This document shows, one piece after another, positions 19,284 through 23,742 of a stretch of 64,000 nt of DNA. Position 1 is the stretch's first letter, and every line of letters begins with the position of its first letter. The notes beneath the pieces are model-generated. The model made no database searches. It saw nothing but the letters and a program-made list of their open reading frames with translations, and was not told the origin of the DNA. This DNA comes from Escherichia coli (GTDB lineage: Bacteria; Pseudomonadota; Gammaproteobacteria; Enterobacterales; Enterobacteriaceae): the NCBI RefSeq assembly GCF_050920415.1, contig NZ_CP169309.1; one strand, written 5' to 3'. The position numbers were made by a program, and so were the translations under genes.

Positions 19284-19511
19284 ATGCCAACTCAAGAAGC
19301 GAAAGCTCATCACGTCGGTGAATGGGCATCTCTGCGCAATACGTCGCCGGAAATAGCCGAGGCCATTTTCGAAGTCGCCGGGTACGACGAAAAAATGGCG
19401 GAAAAGATTTGGGAAGAAGGTAGCGATGAAGTGTTAGTCAAAGCCTTTGCTAAGACCGATAAAGATTCGCTTTTTTGGGGCGAACAGACCATCGAACGTA
19501 AAAACGTTTAA
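19284..19511 (+). CDS. yccJ: YccJ, small conserved protein
   Basis: 75-aa ORF 20 bp after wrbA with RBS caggagga; matches recalled YccJ. Confidence 0.9.
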
Positions 19512-19517
19512 TCCTGA

Positions 19518-19545
19518 ACCTCCCCCGTGGTGAACGGGGGAGTTT
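19518..19545 (+). terminator. rho-independent terminator after yccJ
   Basis: ctcccccg-tggtgaa-cgggggag stem-loop followed by tttt. Confidence 0.7.
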
Positions 19546-19888
19546 TCGATTATTCATTGACCAACGTCTCATGCCCTGTTATTACTGTGAGATATTCAAT
19601 CACGTTATCAAATAAAAAAATCGATATCATTGCGGTAAGCTTGTTATTGATTATAAATATGGGTAATAAGCGATATCCAGCATGAATTTGATTGTACAGA
19701 GTATTTCCTATATAGCCATTGGTTAAATCTTGAAGATAAGATACCTCCGGCTGAAAAATCCATCCCGGCAATGAAGGATGTGATATTTTCGTAATTCTCT
19801 TGCAGAATAAACAACCCTGGATACGCTCTGAATACAAGGAAATTTTCCAATAAATTATTTATTCATCAATACTCCCCGGCGAGGATCA

Positions 19889-20407
19889 TCAAAATATCTC
19901 ATTATCTTTTAAAACTGCCCAGCCCGTTATAACGGACGTTATCTGGCGCACGCTGAAGTGGGCATGATACTCACTTTCATTAAAATGCTCGACATGATTT
20001 GCTAATCGCTTAGCTAGATAATTGACGTTCAGTCTGTGCCAAATTTTTAGCGAAAAATAGCAAATTTCAAGCCGGGAATTTATCAAAGCATCCTCATTTA
20101 CTTCACCATGAACAATAAAGTCACGCATAAACTGCAGGTGTTTAATTAATAAAATCCATTCACTTTCAGTAAGATAGTTTTTCCCACGCAGATTATAATA
20201 CAGAGATTTGATTAATGGGATCTTCTGCTTATGGCGCTTTGACCGCGCTGAGCACAATATTTGTTCTATCAGGCCAAGCGTCCCTTTCTGACGCAACCAG
20301 CACCGGAGTTCAGACTGCGCGCTAATGCCGCGAGCCACCGACAAATGTATTTGGGTAAGCAATGCGTATAAACCTAATAAAAACGCGTCGTGATAATACC
20401 GCTTCAT
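19889..20407 (-). CDS. hypothetical protein (172 aa), second gene of the AT-rich insert between yccJ and agp
   Basis: ATG at 20407 with good RBS (aaggtggg, 5-6 nt spacing); lies 12 bp downstream of the preceding ORF stop; visibly AT-rich; no homolog recognised; C-terminal RLANHVEH resembles an R-x(4-6)-H motif. Confidence 0.6.
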   Translation of the reverse strand: MKRYYHDAFLLGLYALLTQIHLSVARGISAQSELRCWLRQKGTLGLIEQILCSARSKRHKQKIPLIKSLYYNLRGKNYLTESEWILLIKHLQFMRDFIVHGEVNEDALINSRLEICYFSLKIWHRLNVNYLAKRLANHVEHFNESEYHAHFSVRQITSVITGWAVLKDNEIF

Positions 20408-20419
20408 TACCCACCTTTG

Positions 20420-20788
20420 TTATCGTAATTTTTTAAACAAATAATCATATAAAATTTCGGCAATGAATTCTGCATGTTCACGTCGCACAATGACATTCAT
20501 AACGTAATATTGCGCAGCAATTTCATTGATAAAATGTTCAGGCAGTATGAATACGCGTGCATAAGCCGAGTATATTTCCAGTATTTCATTTGAGATGTTT
20601 TCAAGATCAACGCAATAATTTGTCACATCATAAAAAAGATTAGCGTATTTTTTATTAATTATGCTAAGGCATATAAATGGGGCATTTAATTTTTCACACA
20701 ATTGCCAGTGCGTTCTTTCATTTTCTCCCTTCCATGTATACTTCATTTTGTCAGCCATCCTTTGATTTACGCGTCTGAAGTTTACCAC
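20420..20788 (-). CDS. hypothetical protein (108-122 aa), first gene of the AT-rich insert
   Basis: maximal ORF begins at a GTG (20788); ATG candidates at 20758 and 20746 (MKYTWKGENERTHW, weak AGGA about 11 nt upstream); no homolog recognised. Confidence 0.5.
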   Translation of the reverse strand: MVNFRRVNQRMADKMKYTWKGENERTHWQLCEKLNAPFICLSIINKKYANLFYDVTNYCVDLENISNEILEIYSAYARVFILPEHFINEIAAQYYVMNVIVRREHAEFIAEILYDYLFKKLR

Positions 20789-20893
20789 TGTGTCTGGGGT
20801 AAACCATGCGTTCTATGGTAAAAATTATACGAGATGTGGCGCTGCGTAATATTCTGCTCCCTCAATATATTTCTGGTGAATATGTTCCAGGTT

Positions 20894-20926
20894 AATTGGG
20901 AAGATCTGCATGTGATCTTCCCAATT
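20894..20926. other. perfect 13-bp inverted repeat hairpin at the agp-proximal edge of the insert
   Basis: aattgggaagatc-tgcatgt-gatcttcccaatt; followed by a T-rich stretch on the plus strand only. Confidence 0.6.
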
Positions 20927-20955
20927 TTATGACTACAAAATGTCAATAGCCGGGT

Positions 20956-22197
20956 TTATTTCACCGCTTCATTCAACACGCTATCAAACTTATCCATTGG
21001 GCAGAAACCATCAGCGTCTATCGGGCAGCCGGTTAATTCCAGCGTCACGCGCTGAGCCGGAGCCTGCAACGTTAACGCATCAGCATTACGCAACTGTTCC
21101 GCACTCTGGTACACATATTCAATTTTCATCAAATCGCGATTAGCTTTGCTGTCATGCCAACGCTGGAAAACGATTTTGCCGCCAATCGGCGTGCGTTCGT
21201 TCTGGTCATGCAACTGATACGGTTTGAAATCCAGTGCCGTTAACAGAGAGGCAATGTTTGAGTCGTGCCCCACCAGCACCGTGATTTTCGGTGCACTAGT
21301 TCGATCGGTGACCAGTGCTTTGTCGATATAACTGACCAGCGGTTTCGCAACATTGCGCGCCACTTCCGGTGAGGTAAACAGGCTATCCTGGTAGCCGTTT
21401 TTCAGCTTCGACAATACTTTCCACTGTTGGTCAGTTTTGATCTCTCCCCACGCCACCTGATCCATCGGGAAACCTTCGTAGTATTGCAAAGTAAACGCAT
21501 CTACCAGCGAGTTGCCGACTTTCAGCGGCCCGGAAACGCCCGGTTCTTGTTGATACTTCGCGCTAAAGGTGTTTTTGCCATCTACAAGCGAACACTGTTG
21601 CTTCTCTTTACAGGCAGGAGAATCTTTATAGTTAACGATTTTTTCCAGTAGCTTGTAGCTGTCGGTAAGCTGGAGTTTGCCGAGCTCTTTCTCCATTGCC
21701 GCCACCGCCTGTTCACTGAATGCGGCGGAATCATCGGTGATCACCGGGTTAAAGGTTGGGTCCATGGTGCCCATTTTTTCCTGGTGATGAACAGGAATAT
21801 CACACCCGGGGAATGCGCCGGTAATAAAGAACTGCGCGGTCGCGACGGTGCGTTGCAGACTATTGGCATAGGCATAAACGGTGTCCGGCGGCGGGCATTC
21901 ACCCGATTTCACCATCCCCTGCTCTGCCAGCCATTCACGCATGTAATGGCCCATATACACTTCGAGTACTCCCCCTTTAGTGGTGAGCTGCCCACCGGGA
22001 ACGTCCCATTCTGGCCATTTATTCGGCGTCGACTGCTCCAGCACACTGCCATTGTTCGCCAGCGGCGCACGTAAGTTATGGCGGCTCATCATGAGCACTT
22101 GCTGCAACTGATAGCCTTCCGGTACGGTTTGTGCCTGAGCATTTGAAGCGAGTAAAACTATCCCTGCCACAGCTGCGGCGATTAGCGTTTTGTTCAT
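20956..22197 (-). CDS. agp: Agp, periplasmic glucose-1-phosphatase (histidine acid phosphatase)
   Basis: 413-aa frame from [22 protein letters not shown]; RHNLRAP active-site motif; matches recalled Agp. Confidence 0.95.
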
Positions 22198-22488: not shown

Positions 22489-23742
22489 TTAAATGGCATA
22501 ACGATTTAAATAGTCCAGTTGCGCTTTCATTTCCTTATGGTTTAACTGGTATGACTGAGCAAAAAGTTCAGTAGGGAGGTAAACGTCATAATGATTGCCA
22601 GTATTCATTAAATAACCATACTCAAGATCTTCATCCGTTGAAAAGGATTCACTTCCCAAGGAGATTGATCCCACATTACAGGCAACAATAAACAATGAAC
22701 AAATGCTATCTGAAAGCACAGCAAGGAAATTCTTCACCGCTTTAACCTTTTCCGGAGAGTCGGTATTTAAAACAAGCGAACCCTTGTTATCATTAAATAT
22801 AAACTCGGGTAAATGCAATATGCATCTTTCGTCATTCAAGCAACTACCAATGAATTCTTTTTTAAACTTAATAAAATTCGACGCTAAAGAATTACCCATA
22901 TCCTGAATTTGGTTGTCAGAATGCAGATCAACGCCAAATAATGTCTTAATCTCTTCCCTGAGATTAAAGAATGCTGCATCAACAAAAGACTCAATCACTT
23001 GTTTATCAACAATTTTAATAAATTCGTCGTATACTTCTTTTTGCGTCTTTTGACTGCCAAGCGCCCATGAATAATCAACGTGTTTTATAACCAGTATGGC
23101 TCTTAACAGACAATATCCATCGCCATCTACAGGCGCGTATTTTAATTTATGTGCTTGATTAATTTCACTCTGAATAAAAGATATACCAGACAAATCAATA
23201 CCAGTAACTGAATCATATATTCCCGGCGTATTTATCCGTTTTGGCTGGACACTCGTAATTTCATCATCATCAAAGCAATACTCAGAAAAAACATCATTAC
23301 ACTCATTTAAGATATCAACATATGCTATAAATTTATACCAACAGCTACTTTTAAAGCCTGCAATAGCCTGTGAAAACATACCCGGCAAGGATATATTAAC
23401 AAGCTCTCTTTCTTGAAAATATTGTATAGTATAGGTAATGCCTCCTGAATCCCCTGAATAAGTGTTTGTATCATGAGTACGTAATGTTTTCATAAATGAA
23501 GATAAATCATTATCATTTTGCATTTCCTCTAATTCTGTTTCTAGTGATTCACACACCAGGCATGAAATATTTTCTTCTTTCCGCATGATTTCATTGTACA
23601 ACCGCATAAAACACTCTAGTTTTTGTTCAAAAAGCGTGATTGAACATTTTTGATTTTCTTCGCGCCTGGTTTTTATATCGGCCCAGGCTGTTTTCAAATA
23701 ATTATTAGCACTGCAACTTACTCCATGTATATTACTACCCAT
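22489..23742 (-). CDS. yccE: YccE-like uncharacterized protein
   Basis: 417-aa AT-rich ORF between agp and cbpA, the position of yccE in K-12; identity rests on position and size only. Confidence 0.7.
   Translation of the reverse strand: MGSNIHGVSCSANNYLKTAWADIKTRREENQKCSITLFEQKLECFMRLYNEIMRKEENISCLVCESLETELEEMQNDNDLSSFMKTLRTHDTNTYSGDSGGITYTIQYFQERELVNISLPGMFSQAIAGFKSSCWYKFIAYVDILNECNDVFSEYCFDDDEITSVQPKRINTPGIYDSVTGIDLSGISFIQSEINQAHKLKYAPVDGDGYCLLRAILVIKHVDYSWALGSQKTQKEVYDEFIKIVDKQVIESFVDAAFFNLREEIKTLFGVDLHSDNQIQDMGNSLASNFIKFKKEFIGSCLNDERCILHLPEFIFNDNKGSLVLNTDSPEKVKAVKNFLAVLSDSICSLFIVACNVGSISLGSESFSTDEDLEYGYLMNTGNHYDVYLPTELFAQSYQLNHKEMKAQLDYLNRYAI

Follow-up and report, generated by a model that had tools for sequence, protein, structure and literature searches.

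The window analysed here, a stretch of 64,000 nt, belongs to an E. coli chromosome and shows the gene order rutG, ymdF, wrbA, yccJ, agp, yccE-like gene and cbpA. In K-12, yccJ and agp are convergent and separated by 37 nt containing one hairpin. In the window, a 1406-bp segment (19550-20955, about 36% GC) lies between this ancestral hairpin and the stop codon of agp. The features of the locus, listed from agp towards yccJ, are as follows.

20956-22197, minus strand: agp, the upstream gene and the source of any read-through
20894-20926, no strand assigned: perfect 13-bp hairpin AATTGGGAAGATC-N7-GATCTTCCCAATT, dG -17.9 kcal/mol, beginning 29 nt past the agp stop
20747-20955, minus strand: non-coding spacer of 209 nt from the agp stop to the gene 1 start, part of the insert and absent from K-12
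20420-20746, minus strand: gene 1 (WP_000878101, 108 aa), an orphan homologue of an Rhs-CT immunity protein, intact in every copy
19889-20407, minus strand: gene 2 (WP_000833427, 172 aa), an orphan related to the immunity protein that accompanies ART-HYD1-like Rhs toxins
19550-19850, minus strand: remnant of gene 3, which has a frameshift in the window; the copies of L010 and strain N3 are intact (100-104 aa)
19520-19542, no strand assigned: the ancestral yccJ/agp hairpin CTCCCCCGT..ACGGGGGAG, now bordering the cassette on its distal side

The ends of the insert were compared between the window (19543-19556 and 20950-20962) and the K-12 locus (L002, 1640-1655). The distance from the gene 3 stop codon TAA to the yccJ hairpin equals the distance from the K-12 agp stop to that hairpin (GAGTTTTCgaTTAttca against GAGTTTTCtgTTAtttca), and because the two stops are equally placed, the two loci differ by a clean 1406-bp indel between two ..GAA(A)TAA ends. 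The segment was carried by five of the 5426 complete E. coli genomes (strains MFDS1022581, 2013C-4282, WL297, N96 and N3), each time at the agp-yccJ site, and was absent from the other 5421. Beyond these five genomes it was found only in Escherichia, also between agp and yccJ, and the carriers were E. albertii, a probable E. fergusonii assembly and a divergent E. coli lineage (L010). Its occurrence in E. albertii suggests that the presence or absence of the cassette is an old polymorphism. The agp allele beside the cassette (20956-22197) is unusually diverged from other E. coli agp genes (dS 0.24-0.28) and identity between the cassette and the probable E. fergusonii copy reaches 96-99%, which together suggest that the region has been exchanged by recombination.

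Gene content of the insert

The 122-aa ORF of the original prediction opens at GTG 20788, but the PGAP annotation and the alignments of homologues both point to a 108-aa gene starting at ATG 20746. The GTG start was dropped, since the end-to-end alignments begin at the ATG equivalent to 20746 and the ATG of the homologue follows directly after the Rhs stop codon, which supports the same start. Gene 1 is 54% identical to an ORF of the Phytobacter plasmid pTMTA97303 (L028), which begins 2 nt past an orphan Rhs-CT fragment and sits in an array of AHH/Imm43 and TNT-like cassettes, and 49% identical to a Kosakonia ORF (L030) that overlaps an orphan Rhs-CT. The Rhs-CTs beside these two relatives belong to one toxin family. 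A reading of gene 1 as a toxin remnant was rejected, because the protein has no similarity to Rhs-CTs, is helical throughout and can be aligned over its full length with proteins encoded in the immunity position. Its AlphaFold model (pLDDT 60) was too poor for a fold search. The regions around the two relatives (L028 4700-10800 on pTMTA97303, and L030 100-5000 on the chromosome of Kosakonia sp. S29) are long arrays in which orphan Rhs-CT fragments alternate with small immunity-type ORFs, one behind each fragment, and several of the toxin domains in these arrays had no match in Pfam.

An exhaustive HMMER search recovered relatives of gene 2 at 27-37% identity. In four independent contexts (L017, L020-23, L027 and L029, the last from Proteus mirabilis) these relatives lie directly after, or overlap, the end of an Rhs protein; in L017 this is a PAAR-Rhs protein of 1487 aa with a 4-nt overlap. 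The Rhs C-terminal domains in all four contexts are one family, with the pattern ..VRH[HY]TS..G.P.GVH[VI]E[VI].PFGD..YVEF.., and two further relatives of gene 2 are orphans themselves or stand within immunity-like arrays. The partner toxin domain matched the Pfam model Tox-ART-HYD1 at E=4.5e-5 with 24.5 bits, which is under the 25-bit cut-off. The gene 2 model is all-helical (pLDDT 79) and gave no real match in a PDB profile search or in a Foldseek search. A HEPN-like assignment was considered and rejected, as the match was weak (E=0.43) and the family does not have the conserved Rx4-6H motif.

No relatives of gene 3 were found outside Escherichia. Searches of genes 1-3 against Pfam, NCBIfam, PADLOC and PHROGs gave sub-threshold noise only and no named immunity family (Imm*, SUKH or others). 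The gaps between the cassette genes are 12 nt in the window and 6 nt in L010. Frameshifts affect gene 3 in the window, N96, 2013C-4282, WL297 and L013, and gene 2 in N3, 2013C-4282 and WL297 (gene 2 of L003, L005 and L006); E. albertii has an IS3-family element in place of most of gene 3 (L007 4928-6299). Gene 2 or gene 3 is therefore broken in most carriers, and expression of the cassette may for this reason lack current selection, while gene 1 is intact everywhere. The dN/dS values (about 0.2 for both genes, 0.19-0.26 for gene 1) indicate purifying selection, so genes 1 and 2 are, or were, expressed and are real genes. In the metagenome contig L014 (1-160), the end of an IS66-family element (..CGCTGTACGCTTAC) lies 2 nt before the equivalent of ATG 20758, so that the entire spacer, with the candidate promoter, is cut off from genes 1 and 2; both genes are intact in this contig.

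Homologues of both gene 1 and gene 2 are placed directly downstream of Rhs C-terminal toxin domains. No cognate toxin gene lies beside the cassette itself, which has agp and the 209-nt spacer upstream and no adjacent rhs sequence. The insert is predicted, from these neighbourhoods, to be a small array of stand-alone orphan Rhs-immunity-type genes. Orphan immunity arrays occur in V. cholerae, and acquired interbacterial defence islands in Bacteroidales. One known orphan Rhs immunity gene is SMDB11_2280 of Serratia marcescens Db10, and orphan proteins of this kind are able to protect when expressed at native levels (PMC10539506); the cassette resembles such genes in carrying Rhs-CT immunity homologues of several unrelated types in tandem, with no cognate toxin. 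The known Rhs orphans, however, form the tail of an rhs/T6SS locus and are transcribed together with it, whereas the cassette stands alone between two core genes, and its closest relatives beside a toxin share only 27-54% identity with it. Tre23 and its immunity protein Tri23 (Plu0352), from Photorhabdus laumondii, are the characterised ART-HYD1 Rhs toxin/immunity pair (PMC8661411), and the partner toxins of gene 2 resemble Tre23 in matching Tox-ART-HYD1 and in carrying the H-Y/H-T N-terminal signature; this parallel concerns the partner toxin domain, whose match lies just under the Pfam cut-off.

The spacer and its TATAAT hexamer

The interval 20789-20893, for which a promoter had been proposed, spans exactly from the foot of the post-agp hairpin to the GTG of the 122-aa ORF. 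The following promoter-like features, all on the minus strand, are located in it.

20851-20880, minus strand: promoter-like site TTCACC-18-CAGAAT (-35 20880-20875, -10 20856-20851), crude score 7.95
20847-20852, minus strand: ATATTA, the best "-35" at 17-nt spacing from TATAAT (two of six matches), which does not look functional and lies in a stretch that varies freely in L010
20824-20829, minus strand: perfect -10-like hexamer TATAAT, a consensus match with a predicted start at about 20816-20819 and a 5' UTR of about 70 nt

The sequence-level description in the original prediction was accurate: the perfect minus-strand TATAAT is present (read 20829 to 20824), the distance of about 70 nt to the ATG candidates corresponds to 65 nt for ATG 20758 and 77 nt for ATG 20746, and a convincing -35 is indeed absent. 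The hexamer has the A at position 2 and the T at position 6 of a sigma-70 -10 element. Neither a TTGACA-like -35 at a spacing of 16-18 nt nor the TGn of an extended -10 accompanies it, the bases preceding TATAAT being CTCG, and the site was missing from the automatic promoter scan of the window because its -35 fails. A sigma-S reading was rejected since the -13C is absent.

The site was scored with a crude sigma-70 weight matrix based on frequencies from published compilations. The TATAAT site scored 9.2, which is at the 99.9th percentile of the window, where 136 positions score as well, and it is the top minus-strand score between the hairpin and the start codon. The window contains 11 TATAAT hexamers against 24 expected, and 4 of the 11 lie inside the 1.4-kb insert. 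Among 5000 Markov-1 random 209-mers of spacer composition, 12% contained TATAAT and 46% reached a score equal to or above that of the site. The insert has 6.2 sites per kb per strand with a score of 9.2 or more, and the remainder of the window 0.97. The TATAAT hexamer is at chance level for the AT-rich DNA of the insert.

The conservation of the spacer was compared across carriers. The five E. coli copies are 97.6-100% identical and uninformative, and identity falls to 0.876 for E. albertii and 0.923 for L010. All E. coli copies, L010 and L013 carry TATAAT at this position and E. albertii carries TATGAT, so that the critical -12T, -11A and -7T are retained in every lineage. The block from -35 to +1 has an identity of 0.838 to E. 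albertii and 0.892 to L010, which is not above that of the whole spacer, and is among the least conserved parts of it. Against L010, the spacer as a whole had fewer mismatches (16 of 209) than the third codon positions of genes 1 and 2 (47 of 280; p=0.003), and against E. albertii the corresponding difference was not significant (p=0.20). The best conserved part of the interval 20789-20893 is the block GGAACATATTCACCAGAAATATATTGAG, which holds the TTCACC-18-CAGAAT site, placed 27 nt upstream of TATAAT; its -10 is TAGAAT in L013 and L015 and TAGCAA in L010. A further promoter-like site, TTGATA-18-TGAAAT (-10 20963-20958, score 9.3), lies within the last codons of agp, upstream of the hairpin.

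Several other explanations of the spacer were examined. It is not a repeated or mobile element, as no second copy was found in E. coli genomes or plasmids, and its derivation from a decayed toxin-CT coding region received no support from the lone tblastn match to the partner toxin, at E=8. A scan of 19300-21200 with Rfam at E<=1 gave no match. The conserved block, judged by eye, did not fit the consensus when read as a sigma-54 site (TGGAAC..CACCA) or as a CRP half-site.

Transcription of the cassette

The hairpin after agp has the stable, G+C-containing stem of an intrinsic terminator, and its 9-bp core is retained in E. albertii and L010. A U-run 3' of the hairpin is absent on the agp (minus) strand, where the tail is TTAACCTGG (TTAACC) with a T-score of 1.8; the U-run TTTTAT is on the plus strand only (T-score 3.5). 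The hairpin would thus terminate agp transcripts leakily at best, and they are likely to run on into the cassette because the U-run is lacking in that direction.

A spacer of 209 nt against gaps of 12 nt is what established operon-distance statistics associate with the border of a transcription unit. A promoter somewhere in 20789-20893 is plausible in view of this spacer and the 12- and 6-nt gaps, the hairpin after agp and the conservation of the spacer. A separate transcription unit is also favoured by the purifying selection on the genes and by their homology to immunity genes, a class with own promoters (PMC3857813). The proposal that the insert genes are transcribed independently, rather than only by read-through from agp, therefore stood in part: the architecture favours a separate unit, but the hexamer on which it was based is at chance level and read-through is likely as well. 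An own promoter and read-through from agp probably coexist. Counting against a promoter at TATAAT itself are the absence of a -35 or TGn, the chance-level score and a block that is not preferentially conserved, and we give the hexamer somewhat less than an even chance of being the -10 in use.

Our preferred reading, held tentatively and at a little under even probability, is that the cassette is expressed weakly by a -10-driven sigma-70 promoter within 20816-20880 together with partial read-through from agp. Such a promoter would transcribe the cassette at a low level; the best single -10 candidate for it would be TATAAT (20829-20824), with a start near 20817, and transcripts crossing the hairpin that lacks a U-run would add to its output. 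H-NS silencing may modulate the promoter in DNA of about 36% GC. The site resembles -10-driven sigma-70 promoters of AT-rich acquired DNA in its perfect TATAAT, AT-rich setting and plausible 5' UTR length, and is unlike them in having neither a -35 nor an extended -10 and in being statistically no different from the many hexamers of this kind in the insert. The predicted arrangement would be one of dual expression, as for T6SS immunity genes: tsiV1-3 of V. cholerae have their own promoters inside the effector gene, as shown by reporter fusions (Miyata et al. 2013, PMC3857813). The likeness lies in immunity-type genes downstream of another gene, with both read-through and an own upstream promoter possible; the difference is that the upstream gene here is the unrelated housekeeping gene agp.

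It is also possible, though we regard it as rather unlikely, that TATAAT is a chance hexamer and that the cassette owes its transcription entirely to read-through out of agp, whose promoter is CRP-dependent, or is essentially H-NS-silent and decaying. The chance statistics, the missing -35 and the lack of preferential conservation of the -35 to +1 block agree with this, as do the frameshifts in genes 2 and 3 of several strains, and the hairpin without a U-run in the agp direction means that read-through alone could suffice. In L014, moreover, the IS66 element removes the spacer from gene 1 and genes 1 and 2 are still intact. Against it, a 209-nt spacer and a hairpin of -17.9 kcal/mol are unusual within an operon, the spacer is conserved above third codon positions in the comparison with L010, and no copy of gene 1 is disrupted, its dN/dS being 0.09-0.26; CRP-dependent expression alone would also, we infer, serve immunity poorly.

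That the promoter is real but placed elsewhere, at TTCACC-18-CAGAAT or at the agp-internal TTGATA-18-TGAAAT, is unlikely. Their scores of 7.95 and 9.3 bear comparison with the 9.2 of TATAAT, but both sites are likewise at chance level. The position of the former in the best conserved block GGAACATATTCACCAGAAATATATTGAG and the improvement of its -10 to TAGAAT in L013 and L015 speak for it, and the change of CAGAAT to TAGCAA in L010 against it, while a transcript from the agp-internal site must pass through the hairpin.

Promoter-like sites on the plus strand, TTCACA-17-TTTCAT and CTTTCA-16-TATACT, are present in the 5' end of gene 1 (20693-20742), and together with the U-run of the hairpin (20894-20931) they could yield an antisense RNA of about 180-200 nt over the RBS of gene 1. 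The idea that the conserved spacer serves this strand, with hairpin and TTTTAT ending an RNA begun in gene 1 and overlapping its RBS, and with TATAAT incidental, draws on the U-run lying on the plus strand only (3.5 against 1.8), the plus-strand -10s at 20716-20721 (score 9.6) and 20737-20742 (score 8.1) and the first 50 nt or so of gene 1, nearly invariant across lineages, but is very improbable, as these sites are consensus matches only, no Rfam family is found, the plus-strand ORF at 20806-20895 is not conserved as a protein and such an RNA would be compatible with a sense promoter as well. This ORF was discarded as a small protein by inspection, since 8 of its 29 residues differ in E. albertii, where its stop is lost.

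Putative orphan immunity between agp and yccJ

Taken alone, the promoter question is a routine one, a weak candidate in acquired AT-rich DNA, and the value of the analysis lies in the re-annotation of the insert. Two "hypothetical proteins", present in a few genomes of E. coli, E. albertii and probably also E. fergusonii, are homologous to Rhs immunity proteins and are encoded away from rhs loci. If they are expressed from an own promoter, Escherichia would have in them a simple example of stand-alone orphan immunity that lends itself to testing, and such a case would help to study how bacteria without the toxin acquire and regulate protection against the type VI effectors of competitors. A wider interpretation, which we put forward as doubtful, is that the cassette between agp and yccJ serves Escherichia as a free-standing islet for interbacterial defence: an orphan Rhs-immunity array with its own constitutive promoter in 20816-20880, maintained by purifying selection since before the split of E. 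coli and E. albertii, which would protect toxin-less carriers from two Rhs effectors deployed by other Enterobacterales, one an ART-HYD1-like ADP-ribosyltransferase and the other an untyped toxin.

On the other side of agp, the yccE-like gene (22489-23742, minus strand) encodes 417 aa at 34% GC. The protein had no match in Pfam, where the OTU model was not hit, or in the PDB, and it contains the motifs DGDGYCLLRA and GNHYD, which we take to recall OTU-type cysteine proteases.
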